A stretch of 64,000 nucleotides of DNA, taken from positions 1 to 64,000 of the forward strand of contig CAWHAE010000010.1 in NCBI GenBank assembly GCA_963827235.1. Direction: 5' to 3'. Position 1 is the first letter of the stretch. Every line of letters starts with the position of its first letter. The DNA is from an uncultured bacterium. GTDB taxonomy: Bacteria > Chloroflexota > UBA5177 > JANWHV01. Of this stretch, positions 5,579 through 62,772 are shown in pieces. The notes under the pieces were generated by a model that was given only the letters and a program-made list of their open reading frames with translations, did not search any database and was not told where the DNA came from. The translations under genes were made by a program, and so were the position numbers.

Positions 5579-6362
5579 TTACCGCGAGAATGTGAACTGG
5601 ATGGCATAGGTGCCGCTCGAGCCGTGCCAGGTGAAAGCTCCCGCGCCGCGCAGGCCTGCCAGACCACCGGGTCCACCGAGAATACTCACTCTGCCTTCCA
5701 CGGTGTGTGTGGCCGGCGTGCGCGCGCCGGTGAACAGGACCGTCAGGGTGCCTGCGTGGCCGGCCACGACGCAGCGACAGGTGGCCGTACCGGCAACGCG
5801 CGCGGGGCCAAGCGCGGGGGCTCGCCCTGGCGACGAGAATGGTATACACCCCCAAGCGTACCGGTCAGCACGCCTGGCCCGTCCCGGTCACATACATGGT
5901 GCCGGCCGCGTAGCCGGTGCCGGGACGGTGGCTCGGGATGCCGTTGACCATGTCGGGCGGTAGAGGGTCGATCATGGGCCGGGCCGCGACGCTGCCTGGA
6001 CCGTGCAGCATGCAGATGGCGCCGGCGGTCGCGAGCAGGCCGGCGGCGAGGGCGAGTCGCGCCGTGATGCGCCTGGCCAGGTGCAGGCCTGCGCGCAGCA
6101 CGGATCTGGAGCGTGCGGGCGCGGCCGCGCCGGGTAGCTGCGTGAAGCGCGCTGCTCGGTGCCGGCGTGGGGGGGCCGGCATCCGCAGCCATGCGCCTGC
6201 CGCGTGTCCATGGAAGTGCGTGGGGCTGGCCTGCGGTTCGAGCAGTACGCTGGTAATGCCGGCGTCGGTCGGGACCGAGGAGAGGGTGTGCAGCGTGAAG
6301 TCCTTCCAGCAGGGCTCAATGCCCTGCCCTGACGCCTGATGCCCGAGCACTGACTGATACAT
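5579..6362 (-). CDS. secreted small beta-barrel protein (DUF3224-like C-terminus), frameshifted; output gene of cassette 1
   Basis: GAAAGGA RBS before ATG 6362; hydrophobic segment RLALAAGLLATAGAICML; C-terminal GTLTVLFTG...EGRVSILGGPGGLAGLRGAGAFTW in another frame. Confidence 0.55.
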
Positions 6363-6403
6363 CTGCCATTCCTTTCGTCTGCGTACGTTGCTGCCTTGCC
6401 AGC

Positions 6404-6508
6404 ACTATGCGCCAGGGTGAGCCGGACTCCCAGGCACACGTCATACGCTCGCCTCACACAGTTGGCTGATACAGTTGCGGTCGCGGCCCTGGCGGTGCGT
6501 GCTATGAT
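6404..6508. promoter_or_regulatory. divergent promoter region, cassette 1
   Basis: minus-strand GGCGCATAGT at 6404-6413; GCACA at 6434; ACAGTTG x2 at 6458 and 6471; plus-strand extended -10 GTGCTATGAT at 6499-6508. Confidence 0.55.
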
Positions 6509-6522
6509 GGGAGGCGAGGAGC

Positions 6523-9500
6523 GTGGCAGCCCAGTCTGCTCGGGCAGGAAGCAGCCTGCCCGGATCGGCACCGGCGATGGGGCATGATGGACCGCGAAGT
6601 CCCGAACAGCTGAGTTTCGGCGCGCTGCTGAAGCAGTACCGTGTGGCGGCCGGGCTCTCCCAGGAGGCGCTGGCGGAGCGGGCCCGGCTCTCACCGGGGG
6701 CGATCAGTGCCTATGAGCGCGGCCTGCGCCAGGCGCCCTATCGGGATACCGTGGCGCTCCTGGTTGCCGCGCTGGGACTCTCGGAGCGGGAAGCTGCAGC
6801 GCTGGAGGCCACCGTCTCTCGCCGCCGGGGACCGCCGGACGCGCTTCCCGATGGCCATGCGCCGCTCGACGGCTTCGAGCACCAGGCGAGGGGCACGTTT
6901 GCCGTCGCCCTGCCTGGCCAGCCCTTCGTCTACGTCTCCTATGCCCGCGCCGATCGTGCCCTGGTCACGCGGCTGGTGGACGAGCTGCACGGGCTGGGCG
7001 TGGTGACCTGGAACGACGACCTGGGACTGCAGCCGGGCACGCCGGACTGGGAGCAGACGCTGCGCGACGCCATCCGCGCCGCGCGCGCCGTCTTGCTGGT
7101 CGCCTCGCCGAGCTCGCGCGCCTCGCGCTACGTCGCCGACGAGCTGCGGGTCGCCGAGATGTACCGGCGCCCCGTGTACCCAATCTGGGTGGCGGGCGAG
7201 CAGTGGATGGAGTGCGTCGCCCTCGGCTGGGGCGGCATGCAGTACGTGGACGCCCGCGGCAGCCGCTATGGCACCGCGCTGCAGGATATCGCCGTGGCAC
7301 TCCAGCGCGCCGGCGAATCGGTGACCGCGGAGCACGCCGGCGGCGACGTCTCACCGGACGCGGCGCCCCGCAACCCGTACAAGGGCCTGCGGGCCTTTCA
7401 GCGTGCGGACGCCGGCGACTTCTTCGGGCGGGAGAGCTTGGTGGCCGAGCTGCTGGCGGGCCTGTCGGCCGGTATCCGGGCCGAGCGACGGCTGCTGGCG
7501 GTGGTGGGGCCGAGCGGATCCGGGAAGTCCAGCGTGGTGCTCGCCGGCCTGCTGCCCCGACTGCAGCGGGGCGCCGTGCCGGGCAGCGAGCAGTGGACGT
7601 ACCTGGAGCCGCTGGTGCCGGGGACACATCCGCTGGAAGCGCTGACCGTGGCGCTGGGCGCAGTGCTGCCCGGCAGCAGTCTGGCGACCCTGCGCGCTGA
7701 TCTGGAGGACTCGGAGCGGGGCCTGCATCTGCTGGCCGCTCGCCTGATGCCGGGGCCGGGTAGCCGCGTCGTACTGGTGGTCGATCAATTCGAGGAGCTG
7801 TTCACGCTGACGGCGGACGAGGCGGAGCGGCGTGCCTTCATCGACCTGCTCGTCACCGCCGCCACCGAGCCGCGGGGAGCGCTGCTGGTCCTGCTGACGC
7901 TGCGTGCCGACTTCTACGACCGGCCGCTGCACTATCCGGCCCTGGGCAATCTGCTCGACGCGCAGCACACGGTCGTGCTGCCCATGGCACAGCACGAGCT
8001 GCGGGAGGCCATCGAGCAGCCCGCGCTGCTGCCCGACGTCGGGCTCACGTTCGAGGAGAACCTGGTCGGCGATCTGCTCTTCGAGGTGCGCGGGCAGGCC
8101 GGCGCCCTGCCGCTGCTCCAATTCACCCTGGACCAGCTCTTCGCGCGCCGGAGCGGGTGCACGCTGACGCTGGCGGCGTACCAGGAGCTTGGTGGGGTGC
8201 GAGGAGCCCTGGCGCGGCACGCCGAGGCCACCTATGCCGCGCTGCCGGCGCCGGAGCACCGGCGGCTGGCACGCGGCCTCTTTCTGCGCCTGATCGACCC
8301 CGGCCCGACGGAGCAAGAGACGACGCGGCGGCGGGCGGCGCTGGACGAGCTGCGCCTGCCCGACCCCGAGCGGACGGCGCTGCTGGCCCAGGTGAGCGAA
8401 GCGTTTATCCAGGCGCGCCTGCTGACCAGCGGCGAGAGCGGCGACACGAGCATGATCGAGGTGAGCCACGAGGCGCTGATCCGGGAGTGGCCCCGGTTGG
8501 CGGAGTGGCTGCACGAGGCCCGGGAGGATATCCGGCTGCAGCAGGGCATCAGCGCGGCGGCGGCGGAGTGGGAGCGGCGGGGGCGACCGGCGGACAGCCT
8601 GTACCGGGCGACGTTGCTGTCCGAGGCGACCGGCTGGGCGCAGCGGAACGTGCCGAGCAGGCGGGAAATGGCGTTCCTGGAGGCGGGCGCGGCGGAAGAG
8701 CAGCGGCAGGAGGCCGCGGACCGCGAGCGGCAGGCGCGGGAGGTGGCCACGGCGCAGCAGGCGGCGGCAGCCAGCCGGCGGCGGCGCTGCGCCTCCGAGC
8801 CCTGGTCGGCCTGCTGGCGATCTTCCTGGTGATGGCTGCCGGGCTGAGCCTGGCGGCGCTCCGCAGCGCGTCCACTGCCCGCACGGAGCGGACACACGCC
8901 GTTGCCGCCGAGGCCACGGCGGTCGCCGAGCGCGACACGGCGCTCTCCCGCCAGCTGGCGGCGCAAGCCATCACCCACCTGACGGATCAGTATGACCTGG
9001 CGCTGCTGCTCAGTCTGGAGGCACGGCGCACGGCCGACACCGTCGAAGCGCGCGGCGGCCTGCTCCAGACACTGGAGGCGCGTCCGGCAGCACTGACGTC
9101 GTTCCTGCCAACCCGGGGCATGGCATCGTGGGCGCTTGCAGTGAGCCCTGACGGCAGGACGCTGGCCTGGGCCACCTCAATGCCCGGGAGCGCCATCTAC
9201 CTTTGGGACGTGCTACACCAGCGTGAGCTTGACCCACCGCTGATCAGCCACCTCCACGGCCTGTATAACCTCTCGTTCGGCGCCGGCGGCAAGACGATAG
9301 CAGCTAACAGCGGCGATGGGCGGAGCGTGGAGGTGTGGGACATCGCGCGGCGGCGACCGGCCGGTCCGGTCTTCTCACTGTCCGCCGTCGAGCCCTCCCC
9401 CGGCCCCACACACGTGGATTTCGCCGCCGTAAGCCCCGACGGCAAGACCGCGGCATTCGCCTATGGCAACGCGGTGTATCTGTGGGACATGCCGCGGAAG

Positions 9501-11039
9501 AAGCTCGCGGCCACGCTCGCAACCTCACGGGAGGTGTACACGATGGCTATTGCGCCCGACGGCAAGACCCTGGCCGCGGGCGAGTATGGCGGCCCTGTCG
9601 AGCTGTGGAATCTTGAGGGCTCCCCACGCCGCAGAACCCTCGCGGGCCATGTGAGCGTCGTGGACGGCCTGGCTTTCAGCGCCGACGGCAAGATCCTTGC
9701 CTCGGGTAGCAACGACATGACGGTCCGGCTCTGGGATGTCCAGAGCGGAAACGAGATCGGCGCCGCGCTGGCCGGTCATACCCGCGCCGTGAACGCCCTG
9801 GCCTTCAGCCGGGATGGCACGCTGCTGGCATCGGGGGACATGGGTGGCAGCATCGAGCTGTGGGATATGACGGGCCGGCGCCTGCTCGCGACGCCGCTGG
9901 ACAGCCACACCGGCGCTCCCAACTTCCTGGCGTTCGGCGCCAAGGACACCGCCCTGTTCGCCGCGGACGGCAACGGCACGATAGCGGCATGGGACGTGGC
10001 CACCGCGCTCGCGGGTCCGGCCTTGCTCGCCGACTCCGACCAAGCCACTGTCGCATCCCTGACCTTTAGCCCCGACGGGCGATCGCTGGTGTCCGGCGAC
10101 TGGAATGGCAACGCGCAGATCTGGAACACCGCGACGTGGGAGTCCGGCACGTGGCACGACGCGTACCTGCTGTGGGGATCGGCGTGTGCGTTTTCCCGCG
10201 ACGGCAGAACGCTGATCACAGCGGGCGACGTGGTGGGCGAAGGGTTCATCACGGTGTACGACGCTCGACGAGGCACCCAGGTCAAGGTGCTGCGCACGAC
10301 GCTGACGGCCACCGCGGACACCGTGATGCGGATGGCTCTCAGCCCGGACGCCTCCATCGCGGCAGTAGGCTACCACGCCGGCACCCAGGTGGAGTTGTGG
10401 GATCTGCGGCTCGGCAAGCTGCTGCGGCCGGTGATCGAGAACCGGCAAGGTGAGCTGCGGGATCTTGCCTTCAGTCCGGACGGCAAGACGCTGGCATCGG
10501 TCTGGTCGGACGGGACGGTCAGGCTGTGGGATGTCGTGCACCGACGCCCGTACGGCAGGCCGCTGACCGGACACATCGGCGCCGTGAATAGCGTCGCCTT
10601 CAGCCCGGACGGGAGGCTGCTGGCCACGGGGGGCGACGACTACACGGTGCGGCTGTGGAAGGTGTCCTGCGCCTGCGCGGACGGAGCCCCGGTGCAGCTG
10701 ACGAGTTTTGTCAGCGCGGTGGCCTTCAGCCCCGATGGCACGCTTCTGGCGACAGGAGGCGGTGAGACCACCGTGCAGCTGTGGGATGTCGCGACGCGCC
10801 AGCCCTTAGGCCCTCCCTTGCGCGGGCTATCGCAGCCGGTGATTGCCGCGGCTTTCAGTGCAAACGGCAAGCTGCTCGCCGCCGGCGACTACAACGGGAA
10901 CATACACGAGTGGGACGTGGACCTCGCATCCTGGCCGGCACGCGCGTGCGAGGTCGCCGACCGCAATCTCACGGCCCAGGAATGGGCGCAGTACCTTGGC
11001 GACCGGCCCTACCACAAGACCTGCCCCGGCGCTCCCTGA
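6523..11039 (+). CDS. XRE-HTH / TIR / nSTAND1 NTPase / TM / WD40 protein, single frameshift near 8775
   Basis: FGALLKQYRVAAGLSQEALAERA (XRE); FVYVSYARAD...SRYVADEL (TIR); RNPYKGLRAF...[51 protein letters not shown] (nSTAND1); TM LVGLLAIFLVMAAGLSLAAL; about 14 WD40 repeats; RNLTAQEWAQYL...TCP tail. Confidence 0.92.
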
Positions 11040-11137
11040 CTCCCGTGTGTCCGATCAGGAACCACGTGCACGCAGAGGGCTTGCTTCAACAGCACCACAG
11101 AACGAACGCCGGAGTATTCGATGAGGAGGAAGGACCG

Positions 11138-17539: not shown

Positions 17540-18073
17540 TCACTGGGCATTTCCGTTGGCGGGGAACACCTTGCGGCTGGTCATGGTGATGATCGCCGGC
17601 ACGCTCGTGCCGTCGGGCAGGTGCAGCGACGTCATGATAGCCCGCATCTCGCTCCCGTTGTCATCGAACACCGCGAACCAGGTCGCCGTGCGCTGCAAAG
17701 CGCCCGTCTTCGGGTCGAGGAGGCGGACTGCGATGGTCCCGGTGCAGTCCGGATTCACGGTGACGGTCCCCCTGGGTGCGTTCACGGCGGCGACGCCGCC
17801 CGCGCTGGTGGTCTGCGTCCCCGCGGCGATGTTGCCCTGGGCATCCCAGGTGTTCTCCCCCACGATGTCAAACTGGACCGGGCCGGTCGACCGGATAAGC
17901 GTGCCGGTGCCGGTGTAGGCCCACTGGCCGGCCTCGGCGGCGGCCGAGCACGTGCCGGCGCTTTGGCGCTGCGCCTGAGCAGGCGTTCGCGCTCCCGTGG
18001 GCGCCACGACTACCGCCAGCCCCAACACGAGCGCGCCCACGATACACCATGTCCAGACAGTAGTGCGCTTCAT
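17540..18073 (-). CDS. secreted beta-strand-rich protein; output gene of cassette 2
   Basis: GAAAGGAGCA RBS, signal peptide MKRTTVWTWCIVGALVLGLAVVVAP, paired Cys motifs TCSAA and TVNPDCTGTI. Confidence 0.82.
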   Translation of the reverse strand: MKRTTVWTWCIVGALVLGLAVVVAPTGARTPAQAQRQSAGTCSAAAEAGQWAYTGTGTLIRSTGPVQFDIVGENTWDAQGNIAAGTQTTSAGGVAAVNAPRGTVTVNPDCTGTIAVRLLDPKTGALQRTATWFAVFDDNGSEMRAIMTSLHLPDGTSVPAIITMTSRKVFPANGNAQ

Positions 18074-18344
18074 GAATGTGCTCCTTTCTGAGAATCCAGC
18101 AACTTCGATGATCATGCGCGCAATACGTGCTCCATCCTCTTCTGCGCTCGCTTCACTCTCCTTCCTGGTACGCCCGATAGCGTGTCTCTTGGTGCACCTG
18201 GCCCAACGGCACCGAATCAGGCAGCCCCCTGGCCCTGCGCTGAGGGCGGTCGACCCCGCAAATGTCACCGGCCACCGAAGGCTGCTGGCGGCCACACCGA
18301 CGAGGGTTGTTTCGGTGAGCGACCGGGATCGCACTCTCCCGCCT

Positions 18345-29288: not shown

Positions 29289-29289
29289 G

Positions 29290-36070: not shown

Positions 36071-36120
36071 GCAGCGTGTTCCCGGCGCTGTGCCCGGCGT
36101 CGCGCAGGAAGGAGAAGGAC

Positions 36121-44009: not shown

Positions 44010-44037
44010 GACACTTCCGATCACAGCCTGAGAACGA

Positions 44038-49400: not shown

Positions 49401-50850
49401 GTGGGACGCGCCACGGCGCCGGGCGATCGCCGGGCTGCTCGAAAACGCCGCGCTGGCTGCCGTGTCTTCTGTGACGTTCAGCCCCGACGGCTCGATCCTG
49501 GCGTCGAACGCGAACGGACGGGTGCAGCTCTGGGACGTGGCACACCGGCGGCCGTTCGGCCAATCGCTCGCGCAAGGGCCGCAGGCCGTCTACAGCGTGG
49601 CTTTCAGCCATGATGGCGCCATCCTGGCGTCGGCCAGCACCGACGGCAGTGTCCAGCTCTGGAGCATGCCGCGCGGGCAGCCCCTCGGCGCACCGCTCAC
49701 GGGCTCCGCGGCCGGCATGGCGGCCGGTCTCGGCTACGGCAATGGCCTGGCCGACCTGGCGTTCAGTCCGGATGACGGCCTGCTTGCCTCGGGCGGCCAG
49801 TCGGACGCGGTGAGACTGTGGGATGTCTCCGCCGCCCATACCCTGGGTCTTCCCCTGCCCGGAAGCGCCAATCCCGCCGCCGGCGTCGCCATGAGCCCGG
49901 ACGGCTCGCTGGCAGCCTCCGCAGGAGCAAACAAGACGATTCTCGTGTGGGACCTGGCCGGACGCCGGCTGCGCTGCAGCCCGCTGGCCGGCCACACCGA
50001 CTACGTCAACAGCCTGGCCTTCAGCCCGGACGGCAGGATTCTGGCGTCCGGCGCTGACGACGCGACAATCAGGCTCTGGGACGTGGCCCACTGCCGGCCG
50101 CTGGGCGCACCGCTCGCCGATCCGGCAGGGGCCGCCGTCGAGAGCCTGGCGTTTGGCGGCGATGGCCGGGTACTGGTCGCGGGCAACGCAGACGCGAGCG
50201 TCCGCTTGTGGGATGTGTCTCGGCGGCAGGTGATCGGTCTGCCGCTCGTCGGGCCCGCCATGCGGGCCTGGAGCGTGGCCGTCAGCCGCGACGGCAGGAT
50301 GGTGGCCAGCGGGAACCTGGACGGCAGCGTGTGGCTGTGGCACCTGTGGAGCGGCGACCGCCCGGGACTGCTGCTGTCGGGGCACACGGGCGCCGTCTAC
50401 AGCGTGGCCTGCAGTCCCGACGGCCGCACGCTCGCCACAGGCGGCGCCGATGGGACGATCCGCCTGTGGGACACGGCGACGGCGCGCGCAATCGGCGCAC
50501 CGCTGGTCGCCAACGCCGTGGTGCGCAGCGTCGCGTTCAGCCCAGACGGCGCCACACTGGCCTCGGCCGGCGACGACGAGTCCATCCGCCTGTGGGATGT
50601 GGCGACCCAGCTGGCGGTGGGGCCGTCGCTCACCGGCCACACGGGCGGTGTGTGGGGCGTGGCCTTTGGGCCAGGTGGCAAGACGCTGGTGTCGGTGGGC
50701 ACGGACCAGACGCTCAGGACCTGGACCATCGATCCGGCGGTGCTGGAACGGCGTGTCTGCCAGATAGCAGGGCGCAACCTGACTCCCGGCGAGTGGCAGC
50801 ACTACCTGGGAGGCCTGCCGTATCAGAAGACTTGCGCGGCCTACCCATAA
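46414..50850 (+). CDS. XRE-HTH / TIR / nSTAND1 / TM / WD40 protein, intact
   Basis: same motif order as the 6523 protein; TM VLTGALLAFLAVAAGLATVAI; about 15 WD40 repeats; extended -10 TGgTAGAGT at about 46321. Confidence 0.95.
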   Translation: MAQAPLFGELLRRARVAAGLTQEALAERAGLSATAISALERGVRQTPQGETLRLLTNALALPDSEQARLAAAARRLDARSGTIPAASSLAATGAVEPHAGCGVAGAPLSEAEAPVVYLAHARADRALVARLGAELLAHGIRPWRGAQELQPGSPGWEQDARDAIRAARAILYLGSPEARASRYVADELRVAELYRRPIYPLWLAGEAWLECVPLGWGGMQYLDARGGRSAAALDEVAALLRGDQAPAAPSGALPNDEAQGTPRNPYKGLRAFDAADAGDFFGRESAVGSLLAALAGENEQAPRFLAVVGPSGSGKSSLVLAGLLPRLRRGALPGSAGWIDLPPVVPGAHPLEALSVALAASLPASPVQAVHADLEASARGLHLLGQRLAPESGRRVVLVADQFEELFTLAVDEAERQHCIDLLVTAATESRGPVLVILTLRADFFDRPLAYPELAALFDGQSKAVLPMTSADLRAAIEGPAALTDVQLTFEGDLVGDLLFEVRGQAGALPLLEFTLEQLVLRRDGHRLTLAAYQALGGVRGALARHAEAVFAGLPSEEQRHLCRALFLRLITPGASEQETMRRRAGVQELVLEDAEQTRLLQATAEAFIAARLLSTSDGSGGATIEVSHEALLREWERLGAWLQQAWGDIRLQQSVSADAAEWERQGWDPDYLYRGALLLEARGWAARNLPSVSEAAFVAAGVAAEAQRAAAERERQAHELALERRAASRLRVLTGALLAFLAVAAGLATVAINAANTARTSERQEAAAKATALARRDLALSTTLALQSVSHLDDQTTLALLLSVQANRLASTVEARGALLQSFQHQHSRLVAVLRGDPVGAAGVSFSPDGRRLSAVGVGGTVRQWDVATLRQQSLSVTVPGVTSTLAAVTISADGTLMACSSAGAPVVWDLLHGHRIGDFSTGSPAGAVTALAFNADGTVLVAAYTPNVIRLWDVAHQRLIGSFVASQQGAIDSMAFSPDGRTLAVGSDDGSLWLWDAPRRRAIAGLLENAALAAVSSVTFSPDGSILASNANGRVQLWDVAHRRPFGQSLAQGPQAVYSVAFSHDGAILASASTDGSVQLWSMPRGQPLGAPLTGSAAGMAAGLGYGNGLADLAFSPDDGLLASGGQSDAVRLWDVSAAHTLGLPLPGSANPAAGVAMSPDGSLAASAGANKTILVWDLAGRRLRCSPLAGHTDYVNSLAFSPDGRILASGADDATIRLWDVAHCRPLGAPLADPAGAAVESLAFGGDGRVLVAGNADASVRLWDVSRRQVIGLPLVGPAMRAWSVAVSRDGRMVASGNLDGSVWLWHLWSGDRPGLLLSGHTGAVYSVACSPDGRTLATGGADGTIRLWDTATARAIGAPLVANAVVRSVAFSPDGATLASAGDDESIRLWDVATQLAVGPSLTGHTGGVWGVAFGPGGKTLVSVGTDQTLRTWTIDPAVLERRVCQIAGRNLTPGEWQHYLGGLPYQKTCAAYP

Positions 50851-52431: not shown

Positions 52432-53709
52432 TCACGCCGCGGACACGCGCGTAAACACGCAGACAACGCCTCTGGCGCGGTCCTTGAAGCCGGCACCAAC
52501 CAGGACCGCGCCGCCGCTTTCGGCCACAGAGCCGCCAAACCAGTCGCCGGAGCCGCCGTCACCCGCGGTAAGCCTGGCCTGCTGGGCCCAGCGGCCGGCT
52601 GCGCGGGTGAAGACGTACACGGCGCCTGCCTGGTCGTCGGCGTACCACGCTCCGACCAGCGCGGTATTACCGCTCAGGGCCACCGCGTGACCGAACCGGT
52701 CGCGGCAGGCGCCGTCTGCGGCCCTCAGCCTAGCCTGCTGCGTCCACTCCTGCTCAGTGCGCACGAAGATGTAGGCTGCTCCTCGCTGGCAGTCGGCGTC
52801 TCCCGCGCCGACCAGCGCAGTGCTATCGGTAAGCGCGACGGCCATGCCGAAAACATCGCCCGGCATGCCATCGCTCGCGCTGAGCCGAGCCTGCTGCTTC
52901 CAGGTGACGCCTTGCCGCGTGAAAATGAAAGCACTTCCGGTGTTGGCAACCACCCCGGCGGCGCCGACCAGTGCCATGTCGGCGTGCAAGGCGACGGAGG
53001 TGCCGAAGTAGTCCTCCGGCTCGCCCTTGTCCGCGGTGAGCATGGCCTGCTGACTCCAGCGGCCGGCAGTCCGCGTGAAGACGTAGGCTGCACCGGCGTG
53101 GTCATGTGCGTACCAGGCGCCCACCAGCGCGCTGTCCCCATACAGCGCCACGGCACGGCCGAACCAGTCACCGGGAGCACCGTCGCGGGACGATAGCCTG
53201 GCCTGCTCCGTCCACTGCCGTCCGTGCCGCACGAAGATGTACGCTTCCCCGGTGTGGCCGGCCATCGGTGCACCGATCAAGGCAGTATCGCCGCTGAGCG
53301 CCACCGAAACGCCGAACCAGTGATCGGGATTGCCGCTATCGGCCGCAAGCGTGGCCTGTTGAGTCCAGCCACTCGTCGTGCGCACGAAGACGTAGGCGGC
53401 GCCCGCGCCGTGGTGGGCGTTCCAGGCGCCGACCACGGCCGTGTCCCCGCTCAGGGCGACCGGCCCGCCGAAGTGGTCGCCGGCCTGCCCGTCGCCGGCG
53501 GAGAGCTGTGTCTCCTCCTGCCAGCGGGACGAAGTGCCGGCCGACCCGCCACTCCGTAGCTGGGGTCGGCCGGCCTGCAGCGTGGTGAGACGGGGTCGTG
53601 CACCCTGATGGCCGGGTGCTGCCGAACCGGCGAGACAGCGCGGCGGGGCCACGCTGACGGCGAGCAGGGCGGACAGCAGGAGAGTGCAGAGCGTGCGGCG
53701 CGGGGTCAT
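52432..53709 (-). CDS. secreted FG-GAP repeat beta-propeller; output gene of cassette 4
   Basis: GAAAGGAGCA RBS, signal peptide, seven repeats D.FG..VALSGDTALVGA...GAAYVF.R....W.QQA.L. Confidence 0.9.
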   Translation of the reverse strand: MTPRRTLCTLLLSALLAVSVAPPRCLAGSAAPGHQGARPRLTTLQAGRPQLRSGGSAGTSSRWQEETQLSAGDGQAGDHFGGPVALSGDTAVVGAWNAHHGAGAAYVFVRTTSGWTQQATLAADSGNPDHWFGVSVALSGDTALIGAPMAGHTGEAYIFVRHGRQWTEQARLSSRDGAPGDWFGRAVALYGDSALVGAWYAHDHAGAAYVFTRTAGRWSQQAMLTADKGEPEDYFGTSVALHADMALVGAAGVVANTGSAFIFTRQGVTWKQQARLSASDGMPGDVFGMAVALTDSTALVGAGDADCQRGAAYIFVRTEQEWTQQARLRAADGACRDRFGHAVALSGNTALVGAWYADDQAGAVYVFTRAAGRWAQQARLTAGDGGSGDWFGGSVAESGGAVLVGAGFKDRARGVVCVFTRVSAA

Positions 53710-53840
53710 GAGCGTGCTCCTTTCAGGTCGATGGCCACTGCCCGAGGTCGGACCACCGTGGCCGGTGCGGTCCATGCGCGGTGCCCGCATCGCTCGCGGC
53801 TGATCCCTCCTGCCGGCGAGCCCGGGCACTGCTCACCGCC

Positions 53841-54135: not shown

Positions 54136-57100
54136 GTGCAGCGCAGGGATCCCGGTCCCGCCTTCGGGGTGCTGCTGCGACGCTACCGGGAGGCTGCCGG
54201 CCTGACCCAAGAGGGGCTGGCCGAGCGGGCAGGGGTGAGCGCGCGTGCCGTCAGCGACCTGGAGCGCGGGGTCAACCGCGCCCCGCGCGCGGACACGCTG
54301 GGACTGCTGGCCAAGGCGCTCCAGCTGCCGCCGGAGGACCGCACCCGGCTGGAAGCCGCTGGGCGCCGCGTGGACGAGTCCGAGATCACCCCCAGCGTGT
54401 TCGACGCGCCGGCGACAATGTCCTCCAAGGACGTTGGGGTGCGGCTGCCGATCGAAGACCGGACCCCCTCCGTCGTCCTGTCGTACACGGCAGAGGACGG
54501 CGAGTTCGCGGCGCGCTTGCTGAACGACCTGGCCGCGCGCGGCATCGCCGGGTGGCCGGAGCGCACGGAATTGCGGCGCGGGGCCGGCGGGCCGGAGGGT
54601 TTGCGGACCGCGATGCGCGCCTGCCGCGCGGTAGCGCTGGTGGTCTCGCCCGCGGCGCGTGCGTCGCGCCTGGTCACCATGGAGCTGGGCCTGGCCGAAA
54701 TGTACGGCCGTGCCATCGTGCCCGTCTGGGCGGCGGGGGATCGGTGGCTCGAGTGCGCGCCGGCGGAGCTGGCGGGCGTGCCCTGCGTGGACGCGCGCGG
54801 GGCGCGCTATCCCGAGGCCGTCGCCGCCCTCGTGGCCGCGCTCGGCGCGATCTCTCCCGGCTGGCCACTGGAGCACTCCGTGCCCGCACCTGCCGCGCCG
54901 GCTGCGCCGCGCAACCCGTACAAGGGCCTGCGCGCCTTCGTCGAGGAGGACGCGGGGGACTTCTTCGGGAGGACCGCCTTTGTGCAGACTCTGCTGGAGA
55001 TTGTAGCTGCCACCCTAGCAGGCGGGCCGCCCGCACCGGCCCGCCTGCTGGCGGTAGTAGGGCCGAGCGGCTCGGGCAAGTCCAGCCTGGTACGCGCCGG
55101 ACTCCTCACCCGCCTCAAGGCCGGCGCCGTGCCGGGCAGCGAGGGCTGGGTCTACCTCGATCCGGTGCTCCCCGGTGCGCATCCCCTGGAGGCGCTGGCC
55201 GTGAGCTTGGCGGGCAGGCTGGACCGCAGCATACACACCCTGCGCGAGGACTTGAGCGGCGATGACGCCCGTGGGCTGCACCTGTGGGCCCGGCAGCTGG
55301 CGGCGCGTCTCGAGCAGCGAGTGGTGCTGCTCGTCGACCAGTTCGAAGAGCTGTTCACCCTCACCACGGACGAGCAAGAGCGCCGCCAGTTCATCGACCT
55401 GCTGCTCACGGCGACCACCGAGTCGCGCGGGTCGCTGTTGGTCATGTTGACGCTGCGAGCCGACTTCTACGACCGGCCGCTGGCCTATCCGGCATTCGGC
55501 GCCCTTCTACAGAGCCATGGCCAAGTGGTGCTGCCGATGTCCACTGCCGAACTGCGCGAAGCCATCGAGCGGCCTGCCGGCCTGCCCGACGTACAGCTGA
55601 GCTTTGAGAGCGGACTGGTGGGCGACCTGCTCTACGAGGTGGCAGGGCAGGCGGGCGCGCTGCCCCTGCTGGAGTTCACCCTCGAGCAGCTCGCGGACCG
55701 CCGGCAGGGACGCCTGTTGACCGCAGCCGTCTACCAGGAGATCGGCGGGGTGCGCGGCGCGTTGAGCCGGCAAGCGGAGGCGACGTTCGCTGCGCTGCCC
55801 TCCGACGCGCACCGCGACCTGGCTCGGGCGCTGTTTCTGCGCCTGATCGACCCGGGTGCAACAGAGCAGGACACCACGCGCCGCCGGGCGGCGCTGGAGG
55901 AGATGACCCTCCCCGATTCCCACCAGAGCGCGCTGATGCAGGACGTGGCAGACGCCTTCGTGGCGGCGCGGCTGCTGACCTCCGGCGAGCATGCCGGTGT
56001 GACTACCCTGGACGTAAGCCACGAGGCCCTGATCAGCGCCTGGAGCCGCCTCGCGGGCTGGCTGCGCGAGGCGCGCGAGGACGTGCGGCTCCAGCAGACG
56101 ATCAGCGCGGACGCCGCGGCATGGGCGCGGCGCGGTCGGCAGGCCGACCACCTGTATCGGGGGAGTGTCCTGGAGGAGGCGCAGGCGTGGGCGGCGCGGA
56201 ACGTTCCGAGCGCCTGGGAGGTGGCCTTCCTGGAAGCGGGCGTCGCCGAGGCGCAGCGGCAGGAGGCGGCTCAGCGCGAGGCGCAGGCGCGCGAGCTTGG
56301 GCTCGCGCAAGCGGCGGTAAGCGCTAACCGGCGCGCGGCCGGGCGGTTGCGGGCGCTGGCCGTGGTGCTGGCGTTGTTCCTGGTGGTGGCGGCGGGCTTG
56401 AGCGTGGCCGCGCTCAACAATGCCTCTGACGCCTCACGGGCCCGGACCCGTGCTGCGGCCAATGCCTCTGCCGCGCTGAGCGCGCTCTCTCGCGTGTTGG
56501 CCTTGCAGGCCGGCACACTCCTCAACAGCCAGTTGCAGGTCGCGTTGCTCCTGAGTGTGGAAGCCGACCGGCTGAACAGCTCGCCACAGACTCGTGCCAG
56601 CTTGGTTCGCGCGGTCAACTCCAACCCGCGGCTGCTCGCCTTTCTGGCCACGCTGGCCAGTCCCGTGGAGAGCGTGGCCTTCAGTCCGAACGGAGCGATC
56701 CTGGCATCCGGCAGCGGCGACGGCACCGTGCGCCTGTGGGATGTGGCACACCGAGGGGCTCTCGGCCCGCCCCTCGCCGGCCACTCTGATGCCGTGAACA
56801 GCGTGGTCTTCAGCCCCGACGGCAAGACACTGGCCTCGGCCAGCAACGACGGCACAGTACGGCTGTGGGACGTGGTTCGCCGCCAGCCCCTTGGTCCCTC
56901 CCTGACCGGGCAGCCGGGTTTCCTGAACAGCGTGGCCTTCAGCCCCGACGGCCGTATTCTGGCGTGCGGCGGCAGCGCCGGCACGATCCAGCTGTGGGAC
57001 GTGACAGGCCACCGGCCGCTCGGTGCGCCGCTGGGCGGGCAGGCTGGGTTCGTCTATGGCCTGGCCTTCAGCCCGGATGGCAGGCTGCTGGCCGCAGGCA

Positions 57101-58575
57101 GCGGCGACGGCACAATCCGGCTGTGGGACGTGGCCCGCCGCCGGACAATCGGGCCAGCGCTCAGTGGACACAGCGGTGAGGTGCATAGCCTGACCTTCAG
57201 TCCCGATGGCCGGACGCTCGCCGCCGGCGGGGGCACGGGCACCATCGTGCTGTGGGACGTGGCGAGCGGGCGCGTGTCCGGGGCGTCACTGACCGGGCAC
57301 ACCGGTCCGGTGTACAGTGTGGCCTTCAGCTCAGACGGCACGACACTGGCGTCTGGAGGCGAGGACGGCACCATCCGGCTCTGGGACGTGGCGACCCGGC
57401 TGCCCGTCGGTTCGCCGTACCCGGGACATGGCGGCCCGGTGTATGGGGTAGCCTTCAGCCCAGACGGCACGACGCTGGCGTCGGGAGGCGAGGACGGCAC
57501 AATTCGCCTCTGGGACGCGGCGGCCAGCCCGGCCAGCCCGGCCAGCCCGGCCAGCCGGGTGCTCGCCGGGCACAGTGACCAAGTGAATAGCGTGGCCTTC
57601 AGCCCGGACGGACGGATCCTGGCCTCCAGTAGCAACGACGCGACCATCCGGCTCTGGAACGTGTCGACCGGCCGGCTGCTCGGCCCGCCGCTTGCCGCGC
57701 ACGCCGGCCCTGTGCTGGACGAGGCGTTCAGCCCGGACGGGCGCACCCTGGTCTCGCACAGTTACGACGGTGAGACCGCCGTATCGACCATCCGCTTCTG
57801 GAGCGTGCCCACCGGCCGCCCGCTCGGGACGCCCAACATCGCGCATACCGGCACAGTGGACAGTGAGGCTCTCAGTGCCGACGGCAAGATCGTGGCCTTG
57901 GGCGGTGAGGACGGCACAATCTGGCTGTGGGATGTCGCGCGCCGGCGGCCGCCCCGCCCGTGGCTCACCACGGGGGGCGCTGTCGGCCTGCTAGCCTTCA
58001 GCCGCGACGGCACCGTCCTGGCCTCCGGCGGGGCGGACAATACCATCCGCCTGTGGAGCACGGCCAGCGGCCGGGCGCTCGGTCCTTCCATCATCGGGCC
58101 AGCGCTGTGGGCCATGGCCTTCAGCCCCGACGGCACGATCCTGGCCGCGGGGGGCACCGGCACCGTCTTCCTGTGGGACGTGGCGAGCGGACGGGCGCTG
58201 GTTTCGCCGCACACGTGGTATACCGCATGTGGCTATTGCGACACGAGCAGTGTGGCCTTCAGCCCCGGTAGCACCACATTGGCTGCCGGCGACGCCGAGG
58301 GCACCGTCTCGCTCTGGGACGTGGCGAGCGGGCAGGCGCTCGGCCCGGCTCTCGCCGGGCAAGAAAGCGATATCGCAAGCCTTGCTTTCAGCCCCGATGG
58401 GGGGCTGCTGGCCTCCGGCAGCTACGACGCTACGGTCCGCCTGTGGCCCATGCCGACGCGGCAGTCGCCTGTGCAGCGTGCCTGCGCGATCGCCAATCGC
58501 AACCTGACGCCCCAGGAATGGCGGCAGTACCTCAGCGATCTGCCCTACCACAAGACGTGCGGGGACGTTCCTTGA
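54136..58575 (+). CDS. XRE-HTH / TIR / nSTAND1 / TM / WD40 protein, intact
   Basis: GGAGG RBS then GTG; FGVLLRRYREAAGLTQEGLAERAG; VVLSY...SRLVTMEL; GPSGSGKSS; TM LAVVLALFLVVAAGLSVAAL; about 14 WD40 repeats. Confidence 0.93.
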   Translation: MQRRDPGPAFGVLLRRYREAAGLTQEGLAERAGVSARAVSDLERGVNRAPRADTLGLLAKALQLPPEDRTRLEAAGRRVDESEITPSVFDAPATMSSKDVGVRLPIEDRTPSVVLSYTAEDGEFAARLLNDLAARGIAGWPERTELRRGAGGPEGLRTAMRACRAVALVVSPAARASRLVTMELGLAEMYGRAIVPVWAAGDRWLECAPAELAGVPCVDARGARYPEAVAALVAALGAISPGWPLEHSVPAPAAPAAPRNPYKGLRAFVEEDAGDFFGRTAFVQTLLEIVAATLAGGPPAPARLLAVVGPSGSGKSSLVRAGLLTRLKAGAVPGSEGWVYLDPVLPGAHPLEALAVSLAGRLDRSIHTLREDLSGDDARGLHLWARQLAARLEQRVVLLVDQFEELFTLTTDEQERRQFIDLLLTATTESRGSLLVMLTLRADFYDRPLAYPAFGALLQSHGQVVLPMSTAELREAIERPAGLPDVQLSFESGLVGDLLYEVAGQAGALPLLEFTLEQLADRRQGRLLTAAVYQEIGGVRGALSRQAEATFAALPSDAHRDLARALFLRLIDPGATEQDTTRRRAALEEMTLPDSHQSALMQDVADAFVAARLLTSGEHAGVTTLDVSHEALISAWSRLAGWLREAREDVRLQQTISADAAAWARRGRQADHLYRGSVLEEAQAWAARNVPSAWEVAFLEAGVAEAQRQEAAQREAQARELGLAQAAVSANRRAAGRLRALAVVLALFLVVAAGLSVAALNNASDASRARTRAAANASAALSALSRVLALQAGTLLNSQLQVALLLSVEADRLNSSPQTRASLVRAVNSNPRLLAFLATLASPVESVAFSPNGAILASGSGDGTVRLWDVAHRGALGPPLAGHSDAVNSVVFSPDGKTLASASNDGTVRLWDVVRRQPLGPSLTGQPGFLNSVAFSPDGRILACGGSAGTIQLWDVTGHRPLGAPLGGQAGFVYGLAFSPDGRLLAAGSGDGTIRLWDVARRRTIGPALSGHSGEVHSLTFSPDGRTLAAGGGTGTIVLWDVASGRVSGASLTGHTGPVYSVAFSSDGTTLASGGEDGTIRLWDVATRLPVGSPYPGHGGPVYGVAFSPDGTTLASGGEDGTIRLWDAAASPASPASPASRVLAGHSDQVNSVAFSPDGRILASSSNDATIRLWNVSTGRLLGPPLAAHAGPVLDEAFSPDGRTLVSHSYDGETAVSTIRFWSVPTGRPLGTPNIAHTGTVDSEALSADGKIVALGGEDGTIWLWDVARRRPPRPWLTTGGAVGLLAFSRDGTVLASGGADNTIRLWSTASGRALGPSIIGPALWAMAFSPDGTILAAGGTGTVFLWDVASGRALVSPHTWYTACGYCDTSSVAFSPGSTTLAAGDAEGTVSLWDVASGQALGPALAGQESDIASLAFSPDGGLLASGSYDATVRLWPMPTRQSPVQRACAIANRNLTPQEWRQYLSDLPYHKTCGDVP
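57522..57556 (+). repeat. 9-bp tandem repeat GGCCAGCCC x4 encoding an ASP linker
   Basis: in-frame ASPASPASPAS midway through the WD40 array. Confidence 0.85.
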
Positions 58576-58788: not shown

Positions 58789-59373
58789 TCAGTACTGCAC
58801 GAGGACTTCCTCGGCATGGACGCCGGCGGTGCTGGGGCCGAGGTCCAGCATGTCGTCACGGTAGTACCCCGGCCAGGCCGGAATTGGCCACATCTCCGGA
58901 TACGCCATGCCCCCCGCTACCATCGGGTTGTGTACGTCGCGCACCACCCTCGAGCCATCGAACGTCACCCACTCGTCGGAAACATAGAAGTTCCACGCAC
59001 AAGGGCTAAAGTAGCCCTTGCCATGTGCCGCCAGGTGGCAGAGACCCGTGAAAGCCGTGCTCCCCCACAGCTTGGCGTCGCATTGCGGGCTGACGTCACT
59101 GCCGCTGCCTGCGAGCGTCGCCTCATACGAGAATGTGGCGCTGCCCGCGGCAGTACTCACGATATCCACCGTGACGGCCAGCGTGACGGCGCCCGGCGCA
59201 TGGTCGGCCAGGGCGCAGACTTCACCGGGACCGTGGCCGGGCTCGCAGCTCCAAAACAGCTGAGCCAGCCAGTGACCGGCCAGCGACGGGGTACCGGCCG
59301 CCGCCGCGGTGTGTACCGGTAGGCAGGCCAGCACCAACAAGAGGCTTGCGAACAGCTGATGTGTGACGCGCAT
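58789..59373 (-). CDS. secreted Cys-containing hypothetical protein; output gene of cassette 5
   Basis: GAAAGGAGCA RBS, signal peptide MRVTHQLFASLLLVLACLPVHTAAAA, five Cys in the mature part. Confidence 0.78.
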   Translation of the reverse strand: MRVTHQLFASLLLVLACLPVHTAAAAGTPSLAGHWLAQLFWSCEPGHGPGEVCALADHAPGAVTLAVTVDIVSTAAGSATFSYEATLAGSGSDVSPQCDAKLWGSTAFTGLCHLAAHGKGYFSPCAWNFYVSDEWVTFDGSRVVRDVHNPMVAGGMAYPEMWPIPAWPGYYRDDMLDLGPSTAGVHAEEVLVQY

Positions 59374-59518
59374 CGTCTATGCTCCTTTCGGCCCTTCCCT
59401 CGTGTCACACGGCGTGTCGTGCGGCGCCGCTGGCTGCCCCAGTCCGTCGGCGGGCTGGCTGTCTCCACGAGCCTCCAGTCCTCAGCCGACCGATCGTCCC
59501 GATTTCATCGATACGGGC

Positions 59519-59662
59519 AGCGTAGGCCGTCCAGGAGCCGCCGGCCACGCAGACCGGAAGCGGTACCCGCAGGTCTGTGCCAACCGGCGAAACCTGTGCC
59601 TAACGCTTCGCCATCCAGGCTCGCCGCCCACGCAGCGCTCATGCTCGGCGCAGTGCTATGAT
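59519..59662. promoter_or_regulatory. divergent promoter region, cassette 5
   Basis: minus-strand GGCCTACGCT at 59519-59528; CGCAG at 59548 and 59568; plus-strand GTGCTATGAT at 59653-59662. Confidence 0.5.
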
Positions 59663-59741
59663 CACGACGAGCGCCCTCGCGTGGCGGAAGCGCAGATGCA
59701 CACGGCGAGCTTGACACCCACGACGGGGACCGCGCACAGAC

Positions 59742-62700
59742 GTGGAGACCACCCAATCCTTCGGTGAGCAGCTGCGGGAGGGGCGGCTGGCGGCAGGGCT
59801 GACGCAGGAAGCCCTGGCCGAGCGGGCCGGGGTGAGTGCGCGCGGCATCCAGGCCCTGGAAGGGAGCGAGAGCAAGCCGCAACGGGAGACGGCCAGGCGG
59901 CTGGCTGCGGCGTTGGGCCTGCCCGCGTCTGCGCACCCGGCGTTTCTGGCCGCCGCGGGACCGGCACCGCGTCGCCGGACGGTCGCTGCGCCCGAGGCGC
60001 CCGCCGCGCCTCTGCCACCCACGGTCGGGCCACCCGACCTCGGCAGCCGGCCACCCCTGGTCGGGCGCCAGCGGGAGGTGGCGGCGCTGGAGGCGCACTT
60101 GGCCGGCAAGGGACCGCCCCTGCTGCTGTTCGCCGGCGAGCCGGGTATCGGCAAGACTCGCCTGCTGCAGGAGGCAGCACCCCGGGCCATCCCGCGGGGC
60201 TGGGCGGTGCTGGCAGGCGGGTGCAGCCGTGGCACGGGCGAGCCCTTTGCGCCGCTGCTGCAGGCCCTGGAGCGGCATGTGGCGAGCCGGGCGGTGGCGG
60301 CCTTGCGCGCGGAGCTGGCGGGCTGCGCCTGGCTGGTCCGCCTGCTCCCCGACCTGCCTGCCGATGCCATCGAGCCGCTGCCGCACTGGGTGCTGCAGCC
60401 CGAGCAGGAGCGACACCTGCTGTTCAAGTCGGTCAGCCGCTTCCTGACCAACCTGGCGGGAGCGGCCGGAACGCTGCTGCTGCTGGACGACCTGCAGTGG
60501 GCGGGCGCCGATGCCTGCGACCTGCTCGCCAGTCTGCTCCGCCAGCCGCAAGATGTGCCGTTGCGCTTGGTGGGCGCCTACCGAGATACGGACGTCGGGC
60601 CCGCGCACCCGCTCGTGCTAGCCCTGGCCGAGCTGGGCGAAGCGCAACTGGCAACCGAGCACACGCTGGGTCCCCTGGCGCCAGCCGAGGCCCAGGCGCT
60701 CTTCCTGCAGGCCCTGGGCGAGCCTGGACAGGACAGCGAGGCTCTGGCGGCGCAGGTTGCGTCGCGCGCCGCCGGCGTCCCCTTCTACCTGGTGAGCTAT
60801 GCGCGGAGCGTGCAGAGCCGGCAGACCGAGGGGCCGACTGCACCGGGCGTGCCCTGGGACCTGCGGCAGAGCATCCGGCGCCGGGTGCAGGCCCTGCCGG
60901 AGGCCACACGGACGCTGCTGGGCACGGCGGCGGTGCTGGGCCGTGTGGTGCCCCGCACGCGGCTGCTCGCGGTGATGGGACTGCCCGAGGGTGAAGTCCT
61001 CGATGCCGTGCAGCACGCCTGCCGCGCCGGGCTGCTGGAGGAGACGGCGGACGACGCCTATGCCTTCGTGCACGACCTGATCCGCGAGGTGGTGGAAGCG
61101 GACCTGGCGCTGGGGCGCCGCCGCCTGCTGCACCAGCAGGTGGCCGAAGCCCTGGAACGCGCACCCGGCAAGCCGCCCGTGGAGGCGCTGGCCTACCACT
61201 TCCGGGAGGCGGGCGATGCGGCGCGGGCGGCGATCTACCTGGAGCAGGCCGGCGATCAGGCGGCGGCCCGGTTCGCTGACACGGCGGCGGCGGAGCGCTA
61301 CCGGCATCTGGTGGCGTGCCTCGAGGGACTGGGCGGCGCCGAGGCCGACCTCCTGCGCGCCCGTGAGAAGCTGGGCATTGTCCTGGCATGGCGCTTGGGG
61401 CAGTTCGGCGCCGCGCTGGCGGTGCTGGACCAGGCCGCGAGCATGCTCCGCCTGGCGGGCGACCAGGCAGGCATGGCCAGAGTGGAAACGCTCATCGCTG
61501 GGATCTACGGAGACAGAGGTCCCTTTCCGGCGGGGATAGCGCGCCTGCAGCCGATCGTGGCCACACTGGAGTCCCGCGGCCCCTCCGGCGAGCTGGCCAA
61601 GGTGTACTTGAGGCTGGCCAACCTCCACGCGTCGAATGGGCAGCCGGACTACGCGTTGGACTATGGCAGCCGCGGGGAGAAGATCGCCCGTGCGCTGAGC
61701 GACCAGGCTCTGCTGCTCTGGGCACTCACGAACCACGCCTACGTCTGCATCATGGCGAGCCGCGCCGATGAAGCGCTCCGGGCGGCCCAGGAGGCCGCAG
61801 CTTTGGCGGGACCGGAGGACGATGAGCCATGGGGCATACTGGCCTGGACCCTCGAGGAGCGCGGCGAGACCCGAGGACTCATGGGGGCCCTACGGGGGCC
61901 CTACCACCAACTGGCCTGGATCCATGAGGAGCGGGGCGAGTACGAGCAGGGCAGGCAGGCCGCCGAGCACATGCTCGCGATCGCGGAGGGGGCACGGGAT
62001 CCGGCCGGCATCATCACCGCCATGAGCCGGCTGGGGCTAGACGCTTTCCTGAGCGGTGATTGGGTCGCCGGCCGTGCCTACCTGGAGCGCGGCCTGGCCC
62101 TCGCGGACGAGATGGGCTTCAGGGACGGATTTAACTACACTGGCCCGCGCGTCGACCTGGGGCGACTCCTGCATGCCGCGGGCGCCTGGGACGAGGCGGC
62201 GCAGTACTTCGAAGCGGTGCTGGCAGTCTCAGGAGGAACGGGCGAGCGTTTGCACGCGCTCATCGCTCGTGCCCTCCTGGCCGAGCGCGAGGCGGTCGCC
62301 GGCCATCCCGAGGCGGCCTGTGCGCGCCTACTCCCGCTCCGCGACCAGCCGGGTCAGGAGGAGCGTATCGTGACGCAGTACGTGCTGCCCGTGCTGGCCT
62401 GGGCGCAGCTCGAAGCGGGCCAGATCGATCAGGCTGCCGGTACGGTGCGCGAGGCACTTGAGCGGGCGCGGCGCGGCACCTGCCGGCTGGCATGGGCAGA
62501 GGACCTGCGGGTGCAGGCCCTTGTGCTGTTGGCGCAGGGGTGCTGGGACGAGGCAGAGCAGGCGCTGGCGGAGGGTCTGGCCCTGACGCGGAGCATGCCC
62601 TACCCGCACGGCGAGGGACGGCTGCTGGCGGTCTACGGCCGCCTGCACCTGGCCCGCGGCGACGCTGCGGCCGCGCCGAGCCTGCCTGGAGGACGCGCTG

Positions 62701-62772
62701 ACTATCTTCCGGCGGCTGGGGGCGCGCGCGGATATTGAGAGTGCCGAGCAGCTGCTGGCCACGCTCGGCTGA
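59742..62772 (+). CDS. XRE-HTH / AAA_16-type STAND ATPase / TPR regulator, frameshift near 62680
   Basis: paralogue of the 18487 protein; the true tail LEDALTIFRRLGARADIESAEQLLATLG ends at TGA 62770-62772 and matches LEAALVIFHRLGAVKDEVRVQQLLVTLG. Confidence 0.92.

Follow-up and report, generated by a model that had tools for sequence, protein, structure and literature searches.

The window analysed here, the first 64 kb of contig C10 of a soil-type Chloroflexota genome, carries five plus-strand genes (S1 to S5) whose products join an N-terminal XRE-type helix-turn-helix (HTH) to a nucleoside triphosphatase (NTPase) of the STAND class, each lying head to head with a minus-strand partner gene (P1 to P5). 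This gene arrangement is real and is statistically supported across the genome. When the genome is searched with a hidden Markov model built from the five XRE heads, 36 genes of 550 codons or more prove to start with the head (the family numbers about 36-40). The upstream neighbour is divergent for 32 of these 36, compared with 2134 of 6332 other genes (34%; Fisher p 1e-11). Five-of-five divergence in the window is thus unlikely to be due to chance, the background being only 34%. Moreover, 15 of the 32 divergent neighbours encode a product with a signal-peptide-like N-terminus and no further transmembrane (TM) segment, here called the exported type, against 347 of 2134 (16%; p 6e-5). On balance, it seems probable that these proteins form a lineage-expanded family of ligand-gated, one-component STAND transcription regulators, each controlling its own divergent gene.

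The source genome measures 7.98 Mb in 21 contigs (65% G+C; completeness 95.9%, contamination 9%), and the nearest named homologues are found in Chloroflexota metagenome-assembled genomes and in Dictyobacter. Genes were called with a codon-usage model trained on this genome, giving 6391 genes at a coding density of 81%. Signal-peptide-like N-termini were recognised by one simple home-made rule, the same for every gene, which 28.6% of genes pass, or 15.1% when no further hydrophobic segment is allowed. Because several window genes are split between frames, assembly indels are inseparable from true pseudogenes. Searches of the window against Rfam (at the gathering threshold) and with ARAGORN returned nothing.

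Architecture of the five cassettes

The regulators and their partners are as follows.

5579-6362, minus strand: remnant of P1, DUF3224-like, in at least two frames (5579-5767 and 5865-6362)
6523-8832, plus strand: S1, N-terminal part; XRE HTH, TIR_2 and nSTAND1 (Pfam); ends at a frameshift near 8754-8780
8770-11039, plus strand: S1, C-terminal part, in the frame of open reading frame (ORF) 8157-11039; TM helix (residues 206-240 of the frame) and WD40
17540-18073, minus strand: P2, 177 aa, predicted to be exported, NPDCTG motif
18487-21432, plus strand: S2; XRE HTH, AAA_16 STAND NTPase, TPR (Pfam)
44635-45924, minus strand: P3, 429 aa, predicted to be exported, papain-like (Peptidase_C1)
46414-50850, plus strand: S3; XRE, TIR_2, nSTAND1, TM, WD40; alternative start at 46405
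52432-53709, minus strand: P4, 425 aa, predicted to be exported, seven FG-GAP_2 repeats
54136-58575, plus strand: S4; XRE, TIR_2, nSTAND1, TM, WD40
58789-59373, minus strand: P5, 194 aa, predicted to be exported, no known family; two paralogues, both near XRE-STAND genes
59742-62738, plus strand: S5; XRE HTH, AAA_16, TPR (Pfam)

In Pfam searches all five plus-strand products start with an XRE-type HTH (HTH_3/HTH_31, residues ~7-90), and these heads share 45-55% identity. A preliminary description of this DNA had placed the homologous head on two different chassis, and Pfam bears this out: S1, S3 and S4 are XRE-TIR-nSTAND1-TM-WD40 proteins, whereas S2 and S5 are XRE-AAA_16-TPR proteins. The first three match nSTAND1 with E values of 1e-111 to 1e-121 (372-404 bits) and TIR_2 with 51-67 bits; WD40 repeats number 10-12 in S3 and S4 and are also present in the second frame of S1. 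S2 and S5 match AAA_16 with 79 bits and contain TPR_12, in addition to a sub-threshold match to TPR_MalT. The XRE-AAA_16-TPR layout is very common in metagenomes (3389 clusters match S2 at E<=1e-10 among 8000 candidates scored), and the same head is also borne by NB-ARC-TPR, nSTAND1-WD40, LuxR, cyclase and kinase bodies. Full-length XRE-TIR-nSTAND1-WD40 proteins number about five among 120 matches listed, and three of these come from this genome.

In S1, S3 and S4 a single, strongly hydrophobic helix separates nSTAND1 from WD40. Since the HTH, TIR and NTPase domains must be cytoplasmic, the WD40 propellers of these three proteins would be extracellular, beyond that single membrane helix. A survey of nSTAND1 homologues from Chloroflexota, Actinomycetota, Cyanobacteria and others, confined to those with at least 250 residues after the NTPase match (n=70), finds a strongly hydrophobic 19-mer no more than 220 residues past the match in 61; the nSTAND1 family thus appears to be membrane-anchored in general, with its repeats outside. 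The part of PMC8195603 available to us does not mention a membrane helix at this place. Within the TIR domain, the putative catalytic Glu of the S.W..EL-type motif is kept in eight of nine paralogues.

That all five regulators diverge from a gene for an exported protein, as originally described, stands for four cassettes: P2, P3, P4 and P5 all have signal-peptide-like N-termini by our crude heuristic, but in the first cassette both genes are frameshifted. Cassette 1 (window 5331-11040) is duplicated on another contig (C12:1205800-1211500; 5.7 kb, 93.6% nucleotide identity). The two copies differ by 32 indel events, 30 of them not a multiple of three, and the regulator is split at a different place in each. 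Only the C12 copy has an intact partner, a 261-codon ORF with an internal signal-like segment; relative to this paralogue the window P1 has two frameshifts and is in pieces, so its export is unreadable from the window.

The partners are unrelated to one another, as the preliminary description had stated: P1 to P5 give no match among themselves at E<=1e-5. P1 reaches 23.6 bits against DUF3224 on the intact paralogue and 17.5 bits (E 0.0036) on the window fragment; the former is near the cut-off of 25 bits and both are below it, so that P1 is 'DUF3224-like' at most. P3 matches Peptidase_C1 with 22.9 bits (cut-off 20.7), over profile positions 126-203 only; read by eye, the Cys in GDQGWVSDCVAW and the His in GGHELVV are candidates for two residues of the papain-type catalytic Gln-Cys-His-Asn. 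A 77%-identical paralogue of P3 is the partner in a duplicated cassette on contig C1. The FG-GAP propeller proposed for P4 is borne out by FG-GAP_2 matches in seven stretches (334 bits, E 5e-102). Neither P2 nor P5 matches a family in Pfam or NCBIfam. P2 belongs to a rare family (11 proteins among 5.8 billion) in which NPDCTG is a conserved motif. Its predicted structure is an eight-stranded up-and-down beta-barrel, with a predicted local distance difference test score (pLDDT) of 82.7, and matches designed barrels, OmpA and avidins with Z scores of 9-14; such a match bears on the predicted fold and not on function. For P5, the AlphaFold model from a three-row alignment is unusable (pLDDT 40), and a protein atlas search gave scores of 0.87 at most and no family.

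Recurrence of the divergent arrangement

The preliminary description had proposed a test for enrichment of divergent exported neighbours among related regulators, and such an enrichment is found both in this genome and across the class, although it is weaker for STAND-like ATPases that lack the XRE head. Removing two recent duplicates leaves 14 exported-type partners among 30 (p 1e-4). Within the nSTAND1 type alone, all eight genes of this genome have a divergent neighbour, seven of them signal-peptide-like. Every one of the 21 genomes of the class has the XRE head itself, the number of matches ranging from 1 to 47 (1 to 45 in the 20 others); this tally takes in the unpublished genome G018, of which no DNA was used.

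For the class we examined 72 loci, hand-picked among 150 listed matches for an open frame of 550 codons or more and, mostly, for enough upstream sequence. G001 represents the same genus and 14 further genomes represent other genera; G002-G004, fragmented genomes of the same genus, were left out, as was G018. Divergent upstream neighbours are present at 56 of the 72 loci, and 33 of these are of the exported type. In the other genera taken alone, 45 of 58 loci have a divergent neighbour and 26 of the 45 are of the exported type, whereas the downstream neighbours of the same genes are of that type in 12 of 54 cases (Fisher p 3e-4). The effect is seen in most of the 14 genomes; G005, G008 and G019, with five loci together, show none.

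A control set of 36 large AAA_16/NB-ARC genes of this genome without an XRE head has 20 divergent neighbours, five of them of the exported type. The XRE set differs from it in both respects (p 0.0016 for divergence, p 0.008 for the exported type), and since the control is weaker, the association is tied to the XRE-bearing proteins. In other lineages an XRE head is found in eight of 80 nSTAND1 homologues; where upstream DNA is available for these, four of seven face an ORF for a signal-peptide protein or lipoprotein within 450 nucleotides (nt).

The partners of the family in this genome are varied. They include a GHL6 hydrolase, BTRD1 plus beta-lactamase, DUF346 and BNR propellers, a YceI and an FAD/BBE oxidase, and a TY-Chap3 protein is also among them. 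Judged from their sequences, exported partners would make up half of the total or somewhat more and comprise beta-barrels, beta-propellers or lectin-like repeats, a papain-like peptidase and hydrolases. The initial idea of a system that senses and then secretes a dedicated product agrees with the enrichment of exported partners, but it is too narrow, because only about half of the partners look exported.

Module exchange and intergenic DNA signals

Several partners belong to small families that in this genome have three members (P1), two (P2), three (P5) and four (a 470-aa family), none of them more than two genes away from an XRE-STAND gene or XRE fragment, and these families recur with different sensor bodies. 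A second cluster (C16:1196400-1215500) contains three XRE-STAND genes and an XRE fragment (1206784-1207008) together with paralogues of P1 and P5, and the small partner families thus travel with the regulators. The P2 family is found in two of 401 Chloroflexota genomes searched, at three loci, each divergent from an XRE-STAND gene.

The clearest case of exchange involves S2 and g3330, a gene on C12. Common to the two cassettes are the partner gene (74% nt identity) and the XRE codons (72.6% nt identity), along with the leader, the GTGCTATGATGG element and blocks of intergenic DNA, yet the regulators diverge completely after about residue 100, S2 continuing as AAA_16-TPR and g3330 as TIR-nSTAND1-TM-WD40. 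A third homologous cassette, in G001, keeps the same layout. The system is therefore modular, as the preliminary description had proposed, in that one unit of partner, intergenic region and XRE head is common to proteins of both chassis. Moreover, a tree of the XRE domain (75 columns, quick search) rejects a single clade for the nSTAND1 proteins (approximately unbiased test, p 1.6e-4) and places S4 and its paralogue g2439 in a well-supported clade with an AAA_16 protein.

The signals noted in the intergenic regions of the window cassettes are listed below.

18079-18088, minus strand: GAAAGGAGCA leader, Shine-Dalgarno-like, 5 nt before the P2 start
53715-53724, minus strand: GAAAGGAGCA leader, 5 nt before the P4 start
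59380-59389, minus strand: GAAAGGAGCA leader, 6 nt before the P5 start
18374-18408, plus strand: GGaCCAGTAGcGG, three direct repeats spaced by a period of 11 nt, on the upstream side of the promoter-like element of S2; two homologous cassettes preserve them in part
18427-18436, plus strand: GTGCTATGAT, extended -10-like element, 51-60 nt upstream of the start of S2; S1 and S5 are also preceded by elements of this kind

Direct repeats suggestive of arrayed binding sites, such as those from which MalT-type STANDs activate transcription, are clear before S2 and in none of the other four window intergenic regions. The S2, g3330 and G001 cassettes all have four direct repeats of about 11-nt period (CACAnnnGCGG-like) that abut the promoter-like element. 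Over the whole genome, exact 7-mer triplets within 70 nt occur in five of 32 cassette intergenic regions, against 19 of 840 controls. As for the promoter-like element, TGCTATG is found in 11 of 30 non-redundant cassette intergenic regions and in 44 of 839 other divergent ones, and GCTATGAT, which resembles an extended -10, in six of 30 against five of 839. Given this enrichment, GTGCTATGAT is not quite a mere general -10 of the genome; probably, the -10-like element was inherited together with the homologous 5' ends. A third sequence, the CAGTCTGC box, is present in seven of 30 cassette regions against 19 of 839 controls, mostly in the orientation of the regulator, and would be a candidate operator half-site, no more. 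It often lies 60-100 nt upstream of the -10-like element. Scans of the cassette intergenic regions for a sigma-70 consensus and for terminators gave nothing, doing no better than with shuffled sequences.

The leader GAAAGGAGCA, which the preliminary description had seen before three of the partners, does precede P2, P4 and P5. It was rejected as a cassette-specific signal, as only these three of its 19 genomic copies adjoin XRE-STAND genes. Nine of the 19 lie within 15 nt of a called start, and because AAGGAG-type leaders precede only 4.4% of called genes, P2, P4 and P5 have unusually strong ribosome-binding sites. A fourth window copy, at 41997, precedes a 79-codon ORF for a small membrane protein (41754-41993, minus strand), itself upstream of a 262-aa ORF without a family (40891-41679).

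Other genes of the window may be noted here. Four tandem paralogues at 34611-38129 (plus strand) form an exported family of about 240 aa with the leader ...RKLVALLVV... and without a Pfam or NCBIfam match; elsewhere this family is itself the divergent partner, of g2439 and g4537 in this genome and at two loci in G001. The 763-aa DUF346-repeat protein encoded at 38560-40851 (minus strand) is a paralogue of the partner of another XRE-STAND gene, g3702. An HTH_11-WYL-WCX regulator is encoded at 43065-44024 (minus strand), and directly 3' of S2 lies an ORF with transposase-type HTH_32/HTH_29 domains (21518-22267, plus strand), followed by ORF 22327-22893. A sixth STAND regulator, of the classic LAL/MalT layout, spans 1470-4273 (plus strand) over at least four frames and is either a pseudogene or affected by assembly indels; its matches are the following.

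1470-2162, plus strand: AAA_16/AAA_22/NB-ARC
3543-4055, plus strand: TPR_12
3944-4273, plus strand: LuxR-type GerE HTH

Proposed mechanism and known systems

A plausible mechanism can be outlined from these architectures. The XRE HTH would be the output, the STAND NTPase (AAA_16, NB-ARC-like or nSTAND1) the switch and the repeats the sensor, either cytoplasmic TPR or WD40 set outside the cell by the single membrane helix. Binding of a signal by the repeats may release the NTPase switch; the released protein would then oligomerise, its clustered XRE heads binding the shared intergenic region and changing how strongly the divergent gene and, probably, the regulator itself are transcribed. In proteins of the nSTAND1 type the TIR domain may add a second, NAD-linked output. 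As the neighbours differ from cassette to cassette, such a family would couple many signals to many, mostly extracellular, products.

Several points weigh against regulation of the neighbour by these proteins. The gene calls and the signal-peptide rule are home-made and crude, the background comes from one genome, and the related genomes are not independent of each other. About 40-50% of the partners are non-exported, among them a methyltransferase, an aldo-keto reductase, an MFS transporter, a GGDEF sensor and a sigma-70-like protein. K-mer enrichment and repeat searches found no common operator, palindromic ones included, the strongest shared motif being promoter-like, and correcting for about 8500 tests leaves the enrichment of CAGTCTGC borderline. 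It is unusual for a membrane-anchored protein to bear a DNA-binding head, and the TIR domains look catalytically competent, which would be needless in a pure transcription factor. Moreover, S4 and the 72%-identical g2439 are homologous from 24 nt before the start, while their intergenic regions and partners are unrelated; the XRE head is thus not always inherited with its presumed operator, and with S2/g3330 on one side and S4/g2439 on the other, the argument from co-inheritance that the XRE head binds next door has one clear case and one clear counter-case. Lastly, seven distant XRE-STANDs inspected by eye, six from actinomycetes (four Kutzneria/Kibdelosporangium, two Nonomuraea) and one from Dictyobacter, have no soluble exported partner: four have same-strand neighbours, and the three divergent neighbours are one SARP/LuxR-like regulator and two membrane proteins. 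The pattern therefore belongs to this Chloroflexota radiation and does not hold for every XRE-STAND.

We take one further step from ligand-gated regulation tentatively, as clearly less likely to hold than not. The family may constitute an NLR-like receptor repertoire, each receptor wired to its own exported effector, be it a lectin-like propeller, a peptidase, a hydrolase or a ligand-binding barrel, and thus a transcriptional, inducible system of 'extracellular immunity or antagonism' in multicellular Chloroflexota. With the same reserve, some receptors may span the membrane, with WD40 outside and the TIR and DNA-binding head inside, and shuffling of modules, the sensor body being one and partner, operator and XRE head together the other, may create new signal-product pairs. 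In a bolder version, the exported partner would also feed back on the extracellular sensor.

An unlikely alternative, though the most probable of the rival readings, is that the proteins are NLR-like sensors of conflict or defence such as have been described in multicellular bacteria, in which the STAND part detects an invader, TIR (or, in the TPR type, the HTH alone) is the effector, XRE serves only to autoregulate a dangerous gene and the neighbour is incidental or a co-effector set free upon attack. The TIR_2 domains of S1, S3 and S4, with their conserved putative catalytic Glu, speak for it, and since this residue is kept in eight of nine paralogues, a death or defence output retains a place, although the preliminary description had set the cassettes apart from abortive-infection defence. 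The family is also rich in paralogues, with shuffled modules and some decaying copies, and the XRE heads resemble CapH-type defence repressors at the level of the domain. However, no whole-protein match to S1-S5 was found in PADLOC-DB v2 (Avs/AVAST, bNACHT and others); the matches are to domains, SAVED_TIR over about 75 residues, capH/HTH_VI/RmrA over the HTH and HEAT-ARM_XIII on one WD40 region. Most members (AAA_16-TPR, NB-ARC) lack an enzymatic effector and have the HTH as their sole output, and WD40 sensors outside the membrane could not meet intracellular phage proteins. An incidental neighbour is at odds with an association specific to the upstream divergent position and to XRE-bearing STANDs.

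It is less probable still that the exported partner, alone or loaded with a ligand, is itself the signal or co-sensor read by TPR or by the extracellular WD40, in a manner either like that of the RRNPP receptors or binding-protein-dependent. In the RRNPP receptors (Rgg, PlcR, NprR, PrgX) an XRE HTH is fused to TPR, and the adjoining, often divergent, gene encodes a secreted short propeptide. S2 and S5 likewise combine XRE and TPR and adjoin a gene with a signal-peptide-like product. In addition, the partners are predicted to be exported and the WD40 sensors to be extracytoplasmic, several partners are small beta-barrels of ligand-binding type (the eight-stranded P2, the DUF3224-like P1, a YceI), and the small partner families occur only at XRE-STAND loci. 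Unlike RRNPP receptors, which are not known to have an NTPase, the window proteins have one between HTH and TPR, and their partners (177-429 aa in the window, 100-690 aa in the family) are folded proteins, enzymes included, and not short propeptides. Moreover, the S2/g3330 pair weakens this view, since one partner family faces a cytoplasmic TPR in S2 and an extracellular WD40 in g3330, and the partner goes along with the XRE head and the intergenic region rather than with the sensor. A predicted complex of the g3330 WD40 ectodomain with its mature P2-like partner scored 0.00, which counts neither way.

Finally, that the pairing has no function, large regulator genes in secretome-rich regions simply having their own promoters and the signal-peptide enrichment being a calling artefact, is very improbable: the caller and the rule are home-made and the loose rule is widely passed, the window is itself rich in exported proteins, and XRE-less STAND-like genes are also divergent above background (20 of 36), but the same rule sets the divergent upstream neighbours of these regulators apart from those downstream, most of the 14 genomes sampled from other genera show the effect, and partner families recur with different regulators.

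Studies of bacterial STAND/NLR proteins have dealt either with a handful of transcription activators (MalT, AfsR) or with phage sensors that kill the cell. Ligand-gated control of divergent genes, if true, would add a third use of STAND proteins at scale, with dozens of switches per genome, each apparently tied to one divergent, often exported, product. If the pairing is regulatory, it links the uncharacterised sensors of a poorly cultured phylum to their candidate outputs. It also offers many matched promoter-regulator pairs and a natural case of modules exchanged between DNA-binding heads and sensor bodies. Membrane anchoring with the repeats outside, as predicted for most of the nSTAND1 homologues surveyed, bears on what 'conflict' proteins can sense.

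Kaur, Iyer, Burroughs and Aravind (2021, eLife; PMC8195603) defined nSTAND1 as a clade of NTPases from counter-invader systems, in which TIR is one of the N-terminal effectors, and this context also favours the defence alternative. S1, S3 and S4 are like these proteins in their nSTAND1 matches (E 1e-111 or better), N-terminal TIR and C-terminal super-structure-forming repeats, and both groups occur in filamentous or multicellular phyla (Chloroflexota, Actinomycetota, Cyanobacteria). Unlike most nSTAND1 proteins, they have an XRE HTH before the TIR, a feature of only eight of the 80 homologues from elsewhere, and are consistently paired with a divergent gene for an exported protein. Among the Pfam matches of the window genes scanned there is no domain of the effector-associated or death-like adaptor kind, nor one pointing to diversity-generating retroelements or other conflict genes, no search being dedicated to them. 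We found no description of XRE-TIR-nSTAND1-WD40 proteins or of the divergent exported pairing in the literature searched, although the architecture tables of PMC10907252, PMC7159879 and PMC8195603 might list the fusion. Automatic JGI names of the form 'TPR/WD40 repeat protein/transcriptional regulator with XRE-family HTH domain' denote the same architectures, but are names only, and the literature searched yielded no functional study of such proteins.

The closest parallels in layout are MalT of E. coli, a STAND-class transcription activator (PMC4381067), and AfsR of Streptomyces, an NLR-related transcription factor (bioRxiv 10.64898/2026.09.02.748808). Like MalT, AfsR and the SARP-NB-ARC-TPR proteins, S1-S5 combine in a single polypeptide a domain for DNA binding, a STAND NTPase as the switch and, at the C-terminus, repeats as the sensor, and the TPR match of S2 and S5, together with the 11-nt-period direct repeats at the S2 promoter-like element, is MalT-like. 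The DNA-binding domain, however, is an N-terminal XRE HTH: Pfam finds in S1-S5 neither the C-terminal LuxR (GerE) HTH of MalT/LAL proteins nor the N-terminal OmpR-type winged helix and BTAD of SARP/AfsR. A BTAD-like sequence is seen, by eye only, in distant actinomycete XRE-STANDs. Moreover, unlike MalT and AfsR, the family has dozens of paralogues per genome, and three of its window members add TIR, a membrane helix and WD40. Its preferred neighbour is not a catabolic or antibiotic operon, but the gene for a single divergent, often exported, protein.

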